A stretch of DNA of 64,000 nt from Candidatus Melainabacteria bacterium 17Bon1m (GTDB lineage Bacteria; Cyanobacteriota; Vampirovibrionia; Obscuribacterales; Obscuribacteraceae). Below the pieces are notes generated by a model that saw only the letters and a program-made list of their open reading frames with translations, was not told the origin of the DNA and did no database searches. The position numbers were made by a program, and so were the translations under genes. This document shows, piece after piece, positions 31,708-38,557 of this stretch (position 1 is its first letter; every line of letters begins with the position of its first letter). Location of the stretch: positions 160,001 through 224,000 of the forward strand of contig JAVLKG010000005.1 of NCBI GenBank assembly GCA_032128875.1. Direction: 5' to 3'.

Positions 31708-33546
31708 TCAGGCTTCCGACGTCATTTGCGATTGCAGTTCGTTTAACAGATGTTCGATAAGAACCTCTGCCTGACTGCGTCCTAGCTCATCCCAGTGAGG
31801 AACTTTGAACCTGCTCACAGAGAAGCTGTCAGCTTGTTCGTCCGACCAGCCCACAAGATCCAGCGCTCTGCCAAGGATCGTGAGGTAGTTTTGGTCTGTT
31901 ATTTCACCAAGGAAAGGTCCTTTCTGCGCAGGTGCTGCTGGGGCTTTTGGCGGCTCCGGTGGCGCGGGCGGTGCGGGCGGTGCGGGCGGTGCGGGCACCG
32001 GCTCAGGTGGTGCCGGGGGCTCGAACTGCTGAGATGGCGGCGTAGGAGCCGGACCGGTCATGTATGGTGCCGGGGGCGGTGTCAGAAAAGGAGATGATGC
32101 CGAGGGTGTCGGTGTCGGAATGAAAGGCGAAGATTCCGCTGCCGGTGGCGTGAACGGTGTTCCTCCTGGACCTGGCATCGCCGCAGGCGGTGGTGGTGGC
32201 GGTGGAGGACTGGGCTCAGGTGAGAACGACGGTTCAGGCGGCTTGGGCGGCTCGGGTATATCTTTGATCGCTGCATCATTCGCTGACTGTACAACCGAAG
32301 AGAACATATCGCCTGCTGACGAAGGTGACAAAGGTAAAGAAGTCGGAGCAAAGCTGGAAGAGGGGGTTGGCTCTGCCGGTTTGGGTGGCTCAATTGTCGG
32401 CGGCTCAGGAGGTTTTGGTGGCGCCTGTGGTTCGCTTGATGCTGTCGGTGACGAAAGGAAAGGGGACGACTTGAATGGATCTGCCGGAGGCGCAGGAGGC
32501 GTTGCAGGGCTAGAAGTCGAACTCACCGGCGAGAAGGTACCGGAAGTAGTTGGTGCTGCCGTTGCCGAGCTAGAAGGAGACACAGGCGTAATTGTTGGCG
32601 CTGGGGGCGCTGGAATCTCCTCTTCCTCATCTACATCAGTATCTAGTCTTTCAGCGTTTGAAAAGGAAGGTACTTCGCCTGTTGTCTCATCGGCTGAACG
32701 CGCGCTAACCAAAGCAGATTCATCTTCTGCGATTTCTTCATCGAGCTCTTCTTCCTCGAGCAATGCATCGGCTTCTTCCTCGCTCATTCCAACAGAAGGT
32801 GCGGGCGCAGGTGGCGGAGCAGGGGGTGCAGGCGGCGGCGGTGCATTGGGCTCTCCAATAATGCTGCGGCGCTCGGGTGCTCCTAGTGGAGTCGACAAGC
32901 CGGAGCCTGGAGTGGAGAAAGAACTCGAAGAAGGACCGACTTCAAAAGTTGATTCTTTCGGCGTTGCCGGCGCACCAATTATCGACGTCCTCTGGGGCGG
33001 CGGTGGAGGTGGGGGCGGCGGAGTGAATTCCACAGGAGGACCGGCGGAAAAATCAGGACCAATTGAAATTTCTTGCGGTGGAGCAGCTTTTGGCTCCGGC
33101 GCGAATTCGCGTTGCATGGGCTGCCATGGCGAAGACGGTTCGCCTTGCAGCTCTTGCTTGAGGGTGATGGAAATGAGCAATTGCCTCAATTCATCGATTT
33201 GTCTGGAAATTTCGATGAAGCGACGCTCGGTAAAATTGCGGAAGCCAATCAAGGCTTCGTTGAGAACTTCCGGATTTCCAGGCGGCGGCGGCAGGCCGAT
33301 GAGCTTCGGCGTAACGAGACCTTCGGCTTCCAGCTGCGGGCGGATCTGAGACGTAGGCCAGCCTTGCTCGACCAGCTCTTTGATTCGCTCAAGGACCGAC
33401 ATATCTTCAGAGCGGTATTGCCTCTGTTGCCCTCGCCCGCGCTTAATCTCAAGACCGAACATTAGCTCCCAGCGTCTCAACTGGTGAACTGAGAGCCCTA
33501 ATTTGGCTGCTACAGCATTGATTGAAAGCATATCGGCTTGGGACAT
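31708..33546 (-). CDS. MerR-type HTH protein with long Pro/Ser/Glu-rich linker and small C-terminal helical domain
   Basis: LSINAVAAKLGLSVHQLRRWE..GRGQQRQYRSEDM..IKEL..QGW; coiled coil; about 400 aa low complexity; C-terminal LVGWSDEQ..ELGRSQAEVLIEHL. Confidence 0.82.
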   Translation of the reverse strand: MSQADMLSINAVAAKLGLSVHQLRRWELMFGLEIKRGRGQQRQYRSEDMSVLERIKELVEQGWPTSQIRPQLEAEGLVTPKLIGLPPPPGNPEVLNEALIGFRNFTERRFIEISRQIDELRQLLISITLKQELQGEPSSPWQPMQREFAPEPKAAPPQEISIGPDFSAGPPVEFTPPPPPPPPPQRTSIIGAPATPKESTFEVGPSSSSFSTPGSGLSTPLGAPERRSIIGEPNAPPPPAPPAPPPAPAPSVGMSEEEADALLEEEELDEEIAEDESALVSARSADETTGEVPSFSNAERLDTDVDEEEEIPAPPAPTITPVSPSSSATAAPTTSGTFSPVSSTSSPATPPAPPADPFKSSPFLSSPTASSEPQAPPKPPEPPTIEPPKPAEPTPSSSFAPTSLPLSPSSAGDMFSSVVQSANDAAIKDIPEPPKPPEPSFSPEPSPPPPPPPPAAMPGPGGTPFTPPAAESSPFIPTPTPSASSPFLTPPPAPYMTGPAPTPPSQQFEPPAPPEPVPAPPAPPAPPAPPEPPKAPAAPAQKGPFLGEITDQNYLTILGRALDLVGWSDEQADSFSVSRFKVPHWDELGRSQAEVLIEHLLNELQSQMTSEA

Positions 33547-33847: not shown

Positions 33848-34291
33848 TCAGTAGCCGTCGATGACGTGCTGCCGACCGTAGCTGTCGCGGTACACGTAGG
33901 CACCGAAATAGCTGTCCCAGTAGGCGACCACGCGAACGCGAACCGGTCGATCCTCCCACCCGTAGCGGGTGCGGATCTGGCGGTACTCCAGCACGGTGAC
34001 CGTGATGGTCTGTGGCGCTCTGTTGTAGTAACGGTCGCCGTAGTAGTAACGGCCGCCACGGTAGTCCGGGTAGCCGTACACGTCGTTGCGCGGATAGCGA
34101 CGATAGTCACCACCCCAGTGGCCGCCGTGGCGGTAGCCGTGGTTCCAGTTGGGGTTGCCGCGATACGAGCCGATCGAAACGCCGAAGCCGTCACGACCGA
34201 CGTAAACGCCGACGTTCTGGGCGTTTGCCGGGGTTGCCGCGAAGCCGATCATCATGCCGACGAACGCGAGAGCAATTGCTAGCTTTCTCAT
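33848..34291 (-). CDS. Exported Gly/Tyr/Arg-rich small protein
   Basis: Signal peptide (..TPANA), VGVYVG..GVSIG, Tyr/Gly/Arg-rich body; CAGGAG RBS. Confidence 0.75.
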   Translation of the reverse strand: MRKLAIALAFVGMMIGFAATPANAQNVGVYVGRDGFGVSIGSYRGNPNWNHGYRHGGHWGGDYRRYPRNDVYGYPDYRGGRYYYGDRYYNRAPQTITVTVLEYRQIRTRYGWEDRPVRVRVVAYWDSYFGAYVYRDSYGRQHVIDGY

Positions 34292-34901
34292 ACAGTCTCC
34301 TGTGATTTTTAGAGCGACGAAAACCCACCTGCGCGCTTGCCTCGCACATGTGTGAACTCGTTTATGCTCCGGTTATTGGTAGGTGAAAGACCTTGCAAAG
34401 CCAAGCCTACCGCTCAGTTTTGCAAGCTTCTGATTCCCAATCTGCAGTACCCGTGTGTCTTCCCCTCGCTTGCGCGAAAAGAAAGAGAGCTAGAAAGTGG
34501 CAAGGGTGAGCGCTTTCTTGGCAGGTATTTACGGACTAGGTCTTGAATAAAGAACAGAAGTATTTTGAAGCTAGCAAAGCTGCTCATGCCAACTCAATGC
34601 CACTGGGTGGCAACTTTGCACCTAAGTGTGGAAAACACGATGCGCGCTTTACAATTGGCATTGCCAAAAGCGTCAGCCTGCCGGGTTTTTCAATCTGCCT
34701 GCGCTAATGCCGCAAGCGGTTGCATTGCAGCAACATCTTGTCGTGAAGCACTTTTCTTCCCTTTCTCAGTGAAAGGTTTCGCACCTAACTTCGATCAAGC
34801 CCGACCAAAAAGCCGTAATATATGGGCTCGCTAATGTCCGGTGCCGCCTTCTGCAGTGCCGAACAAAACTCCGTCGGGCGAAATCACAAAGGTCGGCAAT
34901 C

Positions 34902-36164
34902 ATGAAAGAAAACGCGAGACGCGCAATTGTGCTGGTTATTGATGGCTGCGGAATAGGCGCGGCACCGGATGCGGAAGCTTTCGGCGATTCGAACAGCTGC
35001 AACACCCTAGCTAATACCGCACAAAAACTGGGCGGATTGAAGTTGCCTACAATGGAAAAATTAGGCTTGGGCAATATCACCGCTATCAATGGTGTTAAGC
35101 AACTTGACCAGTGCTTCGCACGCTTCGGCAAGCTTGAAGAGTCCTCCAACGGAAAGGACACTCAAACAGGGCACTGGGAGATGATGGGACTGGTAAGCGA
35201 GCAAGCGTTTCCCCTGTACCCTAATGGCTTTCCCCAGGATTTGATCGACGCTTTCATAAAAGAAACCGGCTGCAAGGGCATACTCGGAAATAAGCCTGCA
35301 TCAGGAACCGACATCCTCGAAGAACTCGGTGAAGAGCACAAGAAAACTGGCTATCCGATTGTCTACACTTCCGGCGACAGTGTTTTCCAAATCGCGACCA
35401 ATGTGGAAACCACCGACCTACCAACTCTTTATCGTTGGTGCGAAACTGCCCGCAAACTGCTCGATGGACCGCATCGCGTCGGTCGAGTCATCGCTCGACC
35501 ATTCAAAGGCAGCAAAGGCAATTACACAAGACTGGGTGGAGATCGCCGCGATTACGCTGTTCCACCGCCCAAAAAGACCTTGCTCGATATTCTGCTCGAT
35601 CAAAAAATCGGCGTATACGGCATCGGTAAAATCGAAGATATCTTTGTGAAACAGGGCTTGAGCCATGCCAAACACACAGGCACCAACGTTGAAGGTTTGC
35701 AGTTGACTCTGGATGCCATCACCGGCTCAACCGACTTGAGCTCTTACAAATTGGGTCCGAATATGCCCGACGACATTCAGATGATCTTTACCAACCTTGT
35801 TGATACTGACTCGCTTTACGGGCACAGACGCGATGTTGCAGGCTATGGCAAAGCACTCGTTGAAATTGATCAGTGGTTGGATCGCATTGTGAAAGCCATG
35901 CGCAGAGACGATTTACTGATTATTTCCTCCGACCATGGTAACGACCCGACCGCTCCCGGCACGGACCATACTCGTGAGTTTGTCCCATTCATCGGCTACT
36001 CTCCCGCCTTCATCGAGGGCGACAAGCCGATGGCTCAAAACAAAGCAAACGTTGGAACTCGCGCAGGGTTCATGGATATGGCAGCTACCGTTGCCGATTG
36101 GATGGACATCAAATGGAGCGGGCTCGGCACCTCCGTATTGGAAGGACAGGGAGCGAAAGTCTAG
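34902..36164 (+). CDS. deoB: Phosphopentomutase
   Basis: IDGCGIGAAPDA, SNGKDTQTGHWE, YTSGDSVFQIA, GRVIARPF, TNLVDTDSLYGHRRD, SDHGNDPT..TDHTRE. Confidence 0.96.
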   Translation: MKENARRAIVLVIDGCGIGAAPDAEAFGDSNSCNTLANTAQKLGGLKLPTMEKLGLGNITAINGVKQLDQCFARFGKLEESSNGKDTQTGHWEMMGLVSEQAFPLYPNGFPQDLIDAFIKETGCKGILGNKPASGTDILEELGEEHKKTGYPIVYTSGDSVFQIATNVETTDLPTLYRWCETARKLLDGPHRVGRVIARPFKGSKGNYTRLGGDRRDYAVPPPKKTLLDILLDQKIGVYGIGKIEDIFVKQGLSHAKHTGTNVEGLQLTLDAITGSTDLSSYKLGPNMPDDIQMIFTNLVDTDSLYGHRRDVAGYGKALVEIDQWLDRIVKAMRRDDLLIISSDHGNDPTAPGTDHTREFVPFIGYSPAFIEGDKPMAQNKANVGTRAGFMDMAATVADWMDIKWSGLGTSVLEGQGAKV

Positions 36165-36174
36165 CTCGGTAACC

Positions 36175-36223
36175 GTAGGGTGACGCCATGCGTCGACCGG
36201 GCAATGCATGGCATCGCCCCTAG
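36175..36223. repeat. GTAG-type REP-like doublet (two inverted units of about 25 nt)
   Basis: GTAGGGTGACGCCATGCGTCGACC plus inverted CTAGGGGCGATGCCATGCATTGCCC. Confidence 0.65.
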
Positions 36224-36268
36224 AAGAACCGCACACAGCAAGTTTATGAAACGTTAGGAGTAACGAAA

Positions 36269-36778
36269 GTGTCAGCAAAAAAACTAATTGATTTCACCGG
36301 TCAGGCTAAGGGTTTCCAAAAGCATGATCGCTTTGACGACAATGTAGTCAACGAGTTGAGAAAAGATGGAGCAGGTGGAGAAGTTGTGGTTATCGACTAT
36401 GCCATCGGTTTAAGCGAACCGGCTATCGTTTCCGATCACTTGAACTTGACCGGTTCGAGCCCTCTTTGCGGACCTAACAACCCAATCGGAGAGCGCTTCC
36501 CGGTGGTTAACGACATTTATGTTTGCGACGATGCGAAGTTGCCGAAAGGACTTCAATCATTGAAGAAAATTGTTATTGCAGGCTTGAAAGACGGCGTAAA
36601 AACCGGCGAAAAGGAACTTGAGCTGATTAAGTCGATGGGTGCGGAAGCCTTTTGTAAGAACGTCGTGCACACGATGATCGTGGCAGCTCATGCTAAAAAG
36701 AAAGTTCTTGCGATTGTTGTTCCGGAAGGAAAAACATTGAGCGCAGACCTTTTGGCTGCGATTGCTGAATTGAATTAA
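36269..36778 (+). CDS. Degenerate, truncated purine-nucleoside-phosphorylase-like protein
   Basis: SDHLNLTGSSPLCGPNNPIGERFPVVNDIY and GAEAFCKNVVHTMIVAAH..KVLAI match the C-terminal half of trimeric PNP; catalytic motifs absent; GTG start with AGGAG RBS. Confidence 0.78.
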   Translation: MSAKKLIDFTGQAKGFQKHDRFDDNVVNELRKDGAGGEVVVIDYAIGLSEPAIVSDHLNLTGSSPLCGPNNPIGERFPVVNDIYVCDDAKLPKGLQSLKKIVIAGLKDGVKTGEKELELIKSMGAEAFCKNVVHTMIVAAHAKKKVLAIVVPEGKTLSADLLAAIAELN

Positions 36779-36779
36779 C

Positions 36780-36804
36780 GGTCGACGCGTGGCGTCGACC
36801 CTAC
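36780..36804 (-). repeat. GTAG-type REP-like singlet
   Basis: Minus strand GTAGGGTCGACGCCACGCGTCGACC, near-identical to the unit at 36175. Confidence 0.65.
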
Positions 36805-36850
36805 AGAAACTTTCGAAAACTAGCTATTTATCGAACTAAGCGAGGATGAA

Positions 36851-37678
36851 ATGAGTCAAGCAGTTGCAGACAGAGCTGAGAATGCGGTTGCCTATTTGAA
36901 GGACAAAGTTACTGGTATACCGGCAGCAGCAGTGGTTTTAGGCTCCGGTGTCAGTGTTCTGGAAGGGCTTGTCGATAGCAAGAGTTTTCCATTCCTGGAC
37001 GTTTTTGGAATCTCTCCCAGTGTTCATGGACACTCAGGCAATGTCACCGTCGGTCGTTTGAGCGAAGCTGAAGATGCGCCGCTTATAGCTGTTTTCCGCG
37101 GTCGCTTCCATCTCTACGAAGGTCATGACTGGTCTGTAGTCACACTGGCTGCACGTGTCGTCGCTCTCTGGGGCGTGAAGAAACTCTTGTTGACGAACGC
37201 TGCAGGTGGACTCAACAAGGACTATCATGTCGGCGATTTAATGGTGCTCACCGGTTACAGAGACCATCTGAGTCCTGAACTGGCTCAGACGGGTTTGCTG
37301 TCAGCCATCGCAAAGCCGACGACAAAATGCAGCAATGCGCTTAGTGATGAGCTTTTGAAAGTCGGTGAACAACTGGCGAAAGACGACAAAGAGTTTCGCC
37401 CGCTTAGACAGGGCACGTACTGTGCGCTGGCTGGCCCTAACTACGAAACGATGGCGGAAATCGAGATGTTGCGCCGTCTGAAAGGCGATGCAGTCGGTAT
37501 GTCCACTGTTCCTGAAATGCTCGCAGTAGAAGGCACAGGGACAATGGCTGCTGCCGTTTCAGTCATCACCAATGTCTGGCGCGAAGACGAGCCTATGGGC
37601 GGTCATGAGGAAGTTCTCGAAGCTTCGAAGATGGCGTCCAAGAGACTCGATCAGCTCTTCAGAAAAGTTCTCGGTTAA
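36851..37678 (+). CDS. punA: Purine-nucleoside phosphorylase (trimeric/NP-I type)
   Basis: VLGSG, GRFHLYEG, LTNAAGG, GPNYET, GDAVGMSTVPE, VITN, HEEVL. Confidence 0.9.
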   Translation: MSQAVADRAENAVAYLKDKVTGIPAAAVVLGSGVSVLEGLVDSKSFPFLDVFGISPSVHGHSGNVTVGRLSEAEDAPLIAVFRGRFHLYEGHDWSVVTLAARVVALWGVKKLLLTNAAGGLNKDYHVGDLMVLTGYRDHLSPELAQTGLLSAIAKPTTKCSNALSDELLKVGEQLAKDDKEFRPLRQGTYCALAGPNYETMAEIEMLRRLKGDAVGMSTVPEMLAVEGTGTMAAAVSVITNVWREDEPMGGHEEVLEASKMASKRLDQLFRKVLG

Positions 37679-37862
37679 CGTCTGAAAACTGTTTTTGTTC
37701 TCAAATAACGCCGGTATTTGGATTCGACGGCGTTGTTTGCATTCGACGATGCTGCTTTGTAATTGAAAACAGAGCCGATGATGCCACCAATTACGGTGTC
37801 GTATGTGGTTGTGTCGTCGAACCCTCCTTGGATATACGATATAGAATCGTAGGGGTGGGCGT

Positions 37863-37893
37863 AAAAAACGAATGCCTCAGAACGAGGCATTCG
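37863..37893 (-). terminator. Intrinsic terminator
   Basis: Minus strand CGAATGCCTC-GTTCT-GAGGCATTCG-TTTTTT. Confidence 0.8.
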
Positions 37894-37987
37894 CCCGCGC
37901 TAGACCAGTCGCCCGGCATCCGCCACCAAAGGTGACCAATGCCGAGCTCCTGGCTGCACGGTAAAGCTTGACTTGAATCAGGCGCCG

Positions 37988-38557
37988 TTACTGGGTCTGA
38001 TGATCCTGGCAGTGTCCGCAGTTGTTGCAGCAATCGCCGGCGAGGGGCGTTGAGCAATTCCAACAGGCAGGCACCGTCCCCGGAAGATGGTGGTCGTTGG
38101 TGTAGACGACCGGGGGCGTGGTGCTGCGCGCGGCACTTTCCTGGAGCTTCTGCTCCAGCGTGGCGGCGTATGAAACAGGGTCGAGCAGATGGAACTTGAA
38201 CGTTCCGACCACTTGCCCGCCCGCGCTATCACGGCGCACAAGCACCGTCATCTCGCTGGGGAAGGGGTTGCGATTCTGGCTGCGGCTGCCACCAATGAGG
38301 TTGCGCAGCAGGCTGCCAGCGCCGGACGGCTTGGAAGCCGCGGGCACATCGATGGGAGTGGCGGGCTCGTCGAGCGCGACACAGGAAACCTCCTCACCGT
38401 CCACCTCGATGCACGCGTGGAAGCCAGGCTTCATCGCGAACGCGAGCATCTGAGGGATGGTGCCTTGTGGCACGCTGACGAATGTGGTGGTTCCGTCTTG
38501 TTCGACAAACCGATCGAACGTCTTGCGAGCGGTATCACATACTCGGACTGTGATCAT
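37988..38557 (-). CDS. Hypothetical protein with C-terminal zinc ribbon
   Basis: Start MITVRV after GGAGG; C-terminal CWNC..CCNNCGHC. Confidence 0.7.
   Translation of the reverse strand: MITVRVCDTARKTFDRFVEQDGTTTFVSVPQGTIPQMLAFAMKPGFHACIEVDGEEVSCVALDEPATPIDVPAASKPSGAGSLLRNLIGGSRSQNRNPFPSEMTVLVRRDSAGGQVVGTFKFHLLDPVSYAATLEQKLQESAARSTTPPVVYTNDHHLPGTVPACWNCSTPLAGDCCNNCGHCQDHQTQ

Follow-up and report, generated by a model that had tools for sequence, protein, structure and literature searches.

Relationship to described purine nucleoside phosphorylases

Purine nucleoside phosphorylase (PNP) is the textbook obligate homotrimer and a drug target, and nucleoside salvage operons of the deoB-punA type, such as drm-pupG of Bacillus subtilis, bring its gene together with that of a phosphopentomutase. 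Heteromers of an active enzyme with a pseudoenzyme paralogue are already known in other protein families, for example plant PDX1.2 with PDX1 and the trypanosomatid AdoMetDC prozyme. A nucleoside-phosphorylase case was not found described: no heteromeric or split nucleoside phosphorylase appeared in full-text literature searches, which leave subscription journals largely uncovered. Here we describe a deoB-punA locus of Candidatus Melainabacteria bacterium 17Bon1m (class Vampirovibrionia, order Obscuribacterales), located in a 64,000-nt stretch of DNA (the window; positions 160,001 to 224,000 of contig JAVLKG010000005.1, assembly GCA_032128875.1), in which an extra, conserved gene for a 169-aa PNP-like pseudoenzyme, hereafter the short protein, lies between deoB and punA. 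As judged from the alignments and complex model described below, PunA and the short protein probably form a functional complex and together constitute a heteromeric PNP; that the two proteins really bind, in what stoichiometry, that activity depends on the partner and that the genes are co-transcribed is what we infer from these data.

PunA shares its fold, full-length homology and catalytic motifs with the homotrimeric PNPs (PNP-I, or NP-I; calf, human, Mycobacterium tuberculosis; PF01048, TIGR01697). In the calf enzyme, the interface is described as made chiefly by loop 141-168 of one monomer, here called the donor loop, resting on residues 87-91 and 196-205 of the neighboring monomer, here called the acceptor segments (PMC9916683). 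The predicted interface between PunA and the short protein uses these same elements, the loop against 87-91 and 196-205; unlike in the homotrimeric PNPs, the interface halves here lie on two polypeptides, of which one is truncated and non-catalytic, and PunA scores below the NCBIfam cut-offs. As in the known enzyme-pseudoenzyme heteromers, a dead paralogue is kept under selection beside or together with an active enzyme, which it is here predicted to bind; unlike in those systems, the pseudoenzyme is a truncated core on which one half of a cyclic interface survives, the half that the enzyme no longer has.

PunA retains the active site and lacks the interface loop

The first-pass annotation, made from the sequence alone, had read two open reading frames (ORFs; both on the plus strand, Table 1), a PunA with complete catalytic motifs that lacks the canonical loop, and a short neighbor that keeps the loop and lacks the catalytic residues; all of this was upheld by the translations and alignments. 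The PunA motifs are GSG (residues 31-33), GRFHLYEG (84-91), GPNYET (195-200), GMST (216-219), TN (240-241) and HEEV (252-255). PunA matches PF01048 with an E-value of 8e-32 (110.9 bits, above the cut-off of 25.1) and solved trimeric PNPs with E-values of 6e-41 to 1e-27, and falls under the cut-offs of the NCBIfam models NF006054 (196.3 vs 218) and TIGR01697 (181.9 vs 197.1). The calf active site comprises Ser33, His64, Arg84, His86, Tyr88, Glu89, Ala116, Phe200, Glu201, Met219, Ser220, Thr242, Asn243 and His257 (PMC9916683). The residues aligned with these in PunA are S32, H61, R85, H87, Y89, E90, A117, Y198, E199, M217, S218, T240, N241 and H252, and they are invariant in 19 orthologues.

Where the canonical interface loop is expected, PunA residues 135-156 read GYRDHLSPELAQTGLLSAIAKP. 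This replacement segment is unrelated in sequence to the canonical loop, is 7-9 residues shorter and has no RFP motif, and the alignment leaves PunA with neither the inter-subunit loop (calf 141-168) nor an equivalent of Phe159. Within it, P142 and G148 are invariant in the 19 orthologues, and the AlphaFold2 (AF2) model of PunA, with a predicted local distance difference test score (pLDDT) of 90.5, folds the segment into two short helices (142-147 and 149-154). A closed PunA homotrimer built through the canonical interface would not be expected.

The short protein is a truncated PNP-like pseudoenzyme

The short protein is a genuine PNP homologue, with a match far beyond chance: it aligns with positions 126-233 of the 274 in the NCBIfam PNP models (E-value 1.6e-10) and with solved PNPs among the PDB chains (E-value 1e-8). 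Of the two proteins compared with the PNP_UDP_1 family (PF01048), only PunA belongs to it by profile; the short protein has no Pfam match at an E-value of 1 or below, and 3 of 22 relatives of the short protein match PF01048 weakly. An AF2 model built from a 22-sequence alignment has a pLDDT of 93.5 and a predicted template-modelling (TM) score of 0.89, and a Foldseek search with it returned trimeric PNPs as the best matches (E-value ~2e-9; TM-score ~0.6 normalised to the query).

The N-terminal half that the first-pass annotation had thought missing is in fact only the first ~75 residues, about the first quarter, and a C-terminal segment is missing as well. The short protein begins at PNP residue ~76-80, its residue 4 being aligned to position 80 of the M. 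tuberculosis chain (268 residues), and has no equivalents of Ser33 and His64; the absent C-terminal segment would bear those of Asn243 and His257. In the part that is present, GRFH.YEG is replaced by GQAKGFQK, GP.YET by KDGVKT and GMST by CKNV. Residues 55-84, which read SDHLNLTGSSPLCGPNNPIGERFPVVNDIY, are the retained interface loop and include F77, the equivalent of Phe159; the loop proper reads DHLNLTGSSPLCGPNNPIGERFP followed by the conserved Y, and keeps the equivalents of Asn137, Asn145-Pro-Leu and Phe159. Of the 18 columns that are invariant in an alignment of 19 short proteins, 11 fall within residues 56-84, and D43, D56, N59, P65, L66, G68, F77, Y84 and A139 are invariant across 22 family members, distant ones included. 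The family comprises at least 96 clusters at 90% identity in public data, of 101-213 aa and almost all named 'hypothetical'. One Atlas match, a cluster of 203-aa 'hypothetical proteins', is commonest in Actinomycetota, has PF01048 in 30% of its members, scores 0.89 against the short protein and is a weak lead to truncated PNP-like proteins elsewhere.

The two proteins hold complementary halves of the trimer interface

A joint alignment of four canonical PNPs of the class, nine loop-less PunAs and six short proteins was cut at the three interface segments. The donor-loop pattern NPL.G.N...G.RFP...Y is shared by the canonical PNPs and the short proteins; each of the nine loop-less PunAs has in its place a segment 7-9 residues shorter. 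Both acceptor segments, present in the canonical PNPs, are kept in all nine loop-less PunAs (LYEGH at calf 87-91 and AGPNYETMAE at calf 196-205) and are lost in the short proteins: the first reads GFQKH in the window's copy and is absent in two of the six, and the second reads KDGVKTGEKE. By this comparison of segments across the three groups, PunA retains nothing but the acceptor half of the interface, and the short protein nothing but the donor half. The complementarity noted in the first-pass annotation, which concerned the loop, is thus real and more complete than claimed, since the acceptor segments are divided too and are kept only in PunA.

The complex of the two proteins was modelled from the PunA alignment and the short-protein alignment, with the short protein as partner, in three runs and three controls. 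The interaction prediction score from aligned errors (ipSAE) was 0.94 in each of the three runs and 0.00 in the best of the three controls; in calibration, 58 of the 80 solved complexes attained that mark, as against 2 of the 110 mismatched pairs, though the calibration is only rough here because our own alignments were supplied to the model. The runs agreed in at least 98% of contacts, with a partner pLDDT of at least 91. On the PunA side the predicted interface comprises residues 57, 59, 88-91, 139, 144-150, 153-154, 194-203, 205-206, 209-210, 248-252 and 255, which takes in 88-91 of the first acceptor segment and all ten residues of the second, and on the side of the short protein it comprises 56-64, 66-70, 76-81 and residues in 102-141. 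The model places the loop of the short protein on the active-site face of PunA, as in solved homotrimers, with PunA E203 (calf Glu205) in contact with N59 (calf Asn137), and with F77 (calf Phe159) against PunA 196-198 (calf 198-200), including Y198. Among the calf trimer contacts named in PMC9916683 are the Glu205-Asn137 and Phe200-Phe159 neighborhoods.

Conservation in the short protein is concentrated at this predicted interface, where the mean frequency of the top residue is 0.79 vs 0.57 in the rest, and where 9 of 33 residues are invariant, as compared with 9 of the 136 that lie elsewhere (hypergeometric test, p 0.002, with no correction for phylogeny). PunA shows less of this effect, and there the catalytic residues are a confounder. 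The model shows that the two half-interfaces are still mutually compatible, and its score supports binding of PunA to the short protein without establishing it.

These features suggest the following mechanism. Trimeric PNPs are joined head to tail, the docked segments 87-91 and 196-205 bordering the active site of the subunit that bears them. PunA has retained the catalytic site and the acceptor half and lost the loop; the short protein is a truncated, dead PNP fold that has retained the loop and lost the acceptor half, and its loop, with N59 and F77, would dock on the active-site face of PunA and stabilise the geometry there. Because each partner has one half of the head-to-tail interface, ring closure should be impossible, and the assembly would most likely be a 1:1 heterodimer and not a closed trimer. 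The 2:1 and 1:2 trimers considered in the first-pass annotation are accordingly not expected on this reasoning, and the 1:1 model that it also named has the canonical geometry, with the reservation about solved homotrimers discussed below. With deoB, the pair would form one salvage operon leading from nucleoside to base and ribose-1-phosphate, and on to ribose-5-phosphate. We suggest only tentatively the fuller scheme in which the homotrimer has split into an obligate two-gene heterodimeric PNP, with active site and acceptor on one chain and a dead core with the donor loop on the other, and in which one sister family carries the donor on ArgJ.

Synteny and selection within the order

A first sample of 41 related genomes contained 19 pairs in which the short gene and punA share a contig, the two lying -4 to 86 nt apart. 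A subsequent class survey took in 151 genomes, each at least 85% complete. In the window's own order (families f1 and f2; 36 genomes including the window's), the two genes occur together in 22 genomes, side by side in every one, and are both missing from 14; no genome has one without the other, so that the co-occurrence and synteny raised in the first-pass annotation hold in 22 of the 22 genomes with either gene. Two diverged deoB-short-punA sets are seen in one genome (G020:C24 and G020:C181, loci L024 and L045; 77% complete, 3% contamination), which may reflect a duplication or a mixed bin.

The ratio of nonsynonymous to synonymous divergence (omega, dN/dS) was estimated within the genus by the Nei-Gojobori method. 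For the closest pair of short genes, that of the window's genome (G000) and that of G011, dN is 0.018, dS 0.715 and omega 0.025; the range is 0.025-0.11 and the mean, over 15 pairs with dS below 2.5, is 0.058, against a PunA mean of 0.039. Synonymous sites are saturated in many of the comparisons. Purifying selection on the short gene is strong, and the gene is not decaying. It has been proposed above that the short protein is a PNP subunit; the simplest alternative, that its ORF has no function, being either a wrongly called frame or what is left of a tandem duplicate in decay, might be suspected from its truncation, the loss of all catalytic residues and the absence of a Pfam match. Against this stand intact frames of ~165-190 aa across the two families of the order at identities down to 35-40%, omega values of ~0.03-0.1, a GGAG ribosome-binding site, a confident fold prediction and the 96 public clusters, and as far as sequence data allow the remnant explanation is refuted; we give it next to no credence.

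Phylogeny and distribution across the class

In the tree, the loop-less PunAs group in a single clade that lies within the canonical PNPs of the class, and the short proteins group in another (both with support of 100 in the Shimodaira-Hasegawa-like approximate likelihood-ratio test, SH-aLRT). A free quick tree sets the stem of the short clade, of length 2.58, beside two out-of-class PNPs; a tree joining the short proteins with the loop-less PunAs has a likelihood higher by 4.7 log units, with a p-value of 0.625 in the approximately unbiased test (p-AU). The sequences are compatible with a lineage-specific duplication of one ancestral gene. The word 'duplicates' in the first-pass annotation is thus compatible with the tree, which allows more than one attachment of the short clade.

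All six families with a loop-less PunA (f1, f2, f4, f7, f8 and f10) carry the short domain: stand-alone and adjoining punA in f1 and f2, stand-alone and unlinked from punA in f7 and f8, and mostly fused to ArgJ in f4 and f10. Both genes are present in 11 of 11 genomes of f8 and in the single genome of f10. Six genomes of f7 have both, one (G032) has PunA only and one has neither. In f4, PunA occurs in 23 of 23 genomes and the short domain in 21 of 23 by profile search; a further genome (G065) was added by inspection, its ArgJ fusion bearing an additional repeat-like insertion because of which the search had missed the domain, and the assembly of another (G089) has neither the short domain nor ArgJ. 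Five families (f3, f5, f6, f9 and f11) have a canonical PNP, with the match inside a 255-346-aa frame in 69 of the 72 genomes sampled and no separate short copy found, an assignment judged by frame length, with coordinates checked for some genomes only. In a sample of 121 genomes of the phylum, the matches in the 31 matching genomes outside the class all lie in 270-436-aa frames, and no stand-alone short gene was seen. As to a short gene absent or decaying in relatives with a loop-less PunA, which the first-pass annotation had regarded as telling against its proposal, the omega values within the genus speak against decay, and a partner was not found in G032 or in the G089 assembly.

Points against a heteromer and alternative functions

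A number of observations weigh against a heteromeric PNP. The complex model may merely reproduce the solved PNP homotrimers, in which case a pass would mean likeness to them and not binding. The joint pattern of presence and absence within the order was rejected as independent evidence and is weak alone, because adjacent genes are expected to go, and to be lost, together; since the loop-less PunAs and the short proteins each form one clade, their co-occurrence moreover reflects one evolutionary event. In G058, two copies of PunA are accompanied by a single short gene. Outside the order the short gene is not beside punA. The gene order in f8 is rsfS-short-gpmI, the short gene overlapping the start of gpmI, which encodes a cofactor-independent phosphoglycerate mutase (iPGM), a member of the metalloenzyme superfamily to which DeoB also belongs. 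The G038 copy of the short gene adjoins purQ. In f4 and f10 the short domain forms the N-terminal 140-157 residues of ArgJ, a stretch otherwise unannotated, and 18 of the 22 profile matches in these two families lie in frames of 492-610 aa. In G032 (91% complete, 1.6 Mb) no short partner was found by the profile or by a family-specific query. Finally, the human PNP mutant F159A stays trimeric with nearly unchanged activity, as related in PMC9916683, citing its ref. 16.

The fusions are the main support for the proposal that the short domain serves some purpose in which PunA plays no part, for example as a ligand-binding or assembly module put to use by ArgJ, with adjacency to punA a relic of duplication or secondary. 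The lack of linkage in f7 and f8, where the gene follows rsfS, points the same way, as does, weakly, the Atlas lead to other PNP-like clusters of ~200 aa. The most conserved part of the family is, however, the PNP docking loop, among the genomes surveyed the domain was found only in lineages whose PunA has lost that loop, the complex model passes with canonical geometry, and no PNP ligand-binding residues are left in the short protein; on balance an unrelated function appears improbable.

The mildness of F159A and the PunA of G032, for which no partner was found, also speak for an arrangement in which the short protein binds PunA as a modulator, inhibitory or tuning, for example as an active-site cap, and PunA is active alone, its replacement loop stabilising a new state that is either monomeric or homo-oligomeric. 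The modelling support for binding applies to a modulator equally, and the replacement loop, conserved at P142 and G148 and modelled as ordered helices, means that PunA may be self-sufficient. Against a modulator, the contacts in the model match the productive trimer interface rather than an occluding pose, the short gene is part of the salvage operon and is tightly spaced or overlapping in relatives, and a calf PNP made mainly monomeric by six alanine substitutions in the interface had no activity, according to the same source (PMC9916683). We regard a modulatory role as unlikely. Because F159A is mild and disruption of the interface abolishes activity, as that source reports, the emphasis in the heteromeric PNP moves from the donation of Phe159 to the provision of an interface: of the Phe donation put forward in the first-pass annotation, the importance of the loop as interface stands, and that of the Phe by itself, nearly neutral in F159A, does not.

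Several features of the loci just mentioned are recorded here. The G032 PunA (L071 549-1289, G032:C7) is loop-less and has the diverged motifs TAASGG and GMSM. At the G058 locus (L064, G058:C39:12300-16600), deoB is followed by punA copy b, the short gene and punA copy a, in that order, with an antitoxin/PIN-like pair on the other strand between copy b and the short gene; the motifs that are canonical in copy a read AVAMST, HRYEG and GPNYES in copy b. Stand-alone short genes after an rsfS-like gene are found at L047 1953-2375 (G039), L048 1800-2138 (G033) and L070 1222-1809 (G045, f7). ArgJ fusions are located at L050 1420-3030 (G035), L051 1492-3105 (G040), L062 (G059) and L068 1498-3396, minus strand (G065), and at L052 1447-1797 (G029) the short domain is a separate ORF. 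The ArgJ part of the f4 and f10 fusions matches PF01960 with E-values of 1e-102 to 8e-115. In the ArgJ-fused forms and those of f8 the loop is shortened, with the Phe and the Tyr seven residues later both kept. Among longer proteins searched with the family profile there was one match at an E-value of 1e-8 or below, a 508-aa ArgJ fusion, and no fusion of a short protein with PunA, which is weak evidence.

Organization of the locus

The three genes deoB, short and punA follow one another in this order on the same strand (Table 1), and a GGAG-type ribosome-binding site lies 8-11 nt 5' of the GTG start of the short gene. Of the 19 other loci checked in the order, the window's own excluded, 16 have a deoB homologue immediately 5' of the short gene; at the G016 locus deoB is absent, and at those of G004 and G027 there is too little upstream DNA to judge. 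Both spacers flanking the short gene hold copies of a repetitive extragenic palindromic (REP)-like element with a consensus of about GGTCGACGCATGGCGTCGACCCTAC, which has 64 matches in the genome at up to 3 mismatches vs 0 for a reversed control. In our own reading a copy in the deoB-short spacer (36174-36222) appears to be the reverse complement of the 36780-36804 element with one base missing. The wide spacers here, against spacings of -4 to 25 nt in a number of relatives, are accounted for by these copies. An 11-nt repeat motif is not enriched within the window (3 matches vs 1.3 expected).

Table 1. Positions in the window of the deoB-short-punA genes, interface segments and spacer repeats
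Feature	Position	Strand	Description
deoB (phosphopentomutase)	34902..36164	+	420 aa, first gene of the putative operon; NF003766 E-value 6.8e-143, 476 bits vs cut-off 256
REP-like palindromic repeat copies, deoB-short spacer	36174..36222	none	Read from the sequence
Short PNP-like gene	36269..36778	+	169 aa, GTG start; catalytically dead, loop-bearing pseudo-PNP
Donor-loop codons, short protein residues 55-84 including F77	36431..36520	+	Aligns with the canonical PNP loop
REP-like palindrome, short-punA spacer	36780..36804	none	From the count of genome matches
punA	36851..37678	+	275 aa; full-length PNP, catalytic motifs complete, interface loop replaced
PunA acceptor segment 1, residues 88-92 (LYEGH; calf 87-91)	37112..37126	+	From the joint alignment
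Codons of PunA residues 135-166, replacing the canonical loop	37253..37348	+	From the alignment
PunA acceptor segment 2, residues 194-203 (AGPNYETMAE; calf 196-205)	37430..37459	+	From the joint alignment

Co-expression of the pair with deoB is suggested by gene order alone. A scan for promoters and terminators returned 1 promoter-like and 4 terminator-like sites, below the counts in shuffled sequence, and is uninformative. Four runs labelled transcriptomic RNA-Seq (X1-X4) contain the whole window, and each has one near-identical contig over window positions 34300-38200, with flat depth; the records compared are 13-22 kb long and the longest contig of a run reaches up to 156 kb. Flat depth and long contigs resemble genomic DNA, which may even be the material from which the window derives, and the runs were rejected as transcript evidence; because the libraries look like genomic DNA, they are uninformative on transcription or co-transcription. 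Positions 36196-36222 have matches of 25-31 nt on several other contigs of these runs.

Upstream of deoB, on the minus strand, a 612-aa ORF (31708-33546) has a MerR-like N-terminal helix-turn-helix followed by ~450 low-complexity residues rich in Pro, Ser and Ala, the strand opposite being open for 429 aa as a by-product, and a 147-aa ORF (33848-34291) has a signal-peptide-like start and a repetitive body rich in Tyr, Arg, Gly and Asp. The other NP-I enzyme of the genome, methylthioadenosine phosphorylase (MTAP), belongs to the same superfamily and is encoded in one copy at G000:C2:590428-591144 (NF005876, 345 bits vs cut-off 306); it is a separate, complete enzyme, unlinked to the short-punA pair.

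Significance for the PNP family

The reason why PNP must be trimeric is still debated, as stated in PMC9916683. If PunA and the short protein do form a heteromeric PNP, they would constitute a natural experiment on which part of the interface the PNP active site needs, and an unusually clean case in which the products of a gene duplication degenerated in complementary fashion, each losing one half-interface. A protein family of at least 96 clusters emerges from this work; most are named 'hypothetical', and annotation pipelines miss or mislabel them. The work also flags a conserved and unexplained fusion of the short domain to ArgJ; if the heteromeric PNP is real, a donor module grafted onto ArgJ would physically tether purine nucleoside phosphorolysis to an enzyme of arginine biosynthesis.

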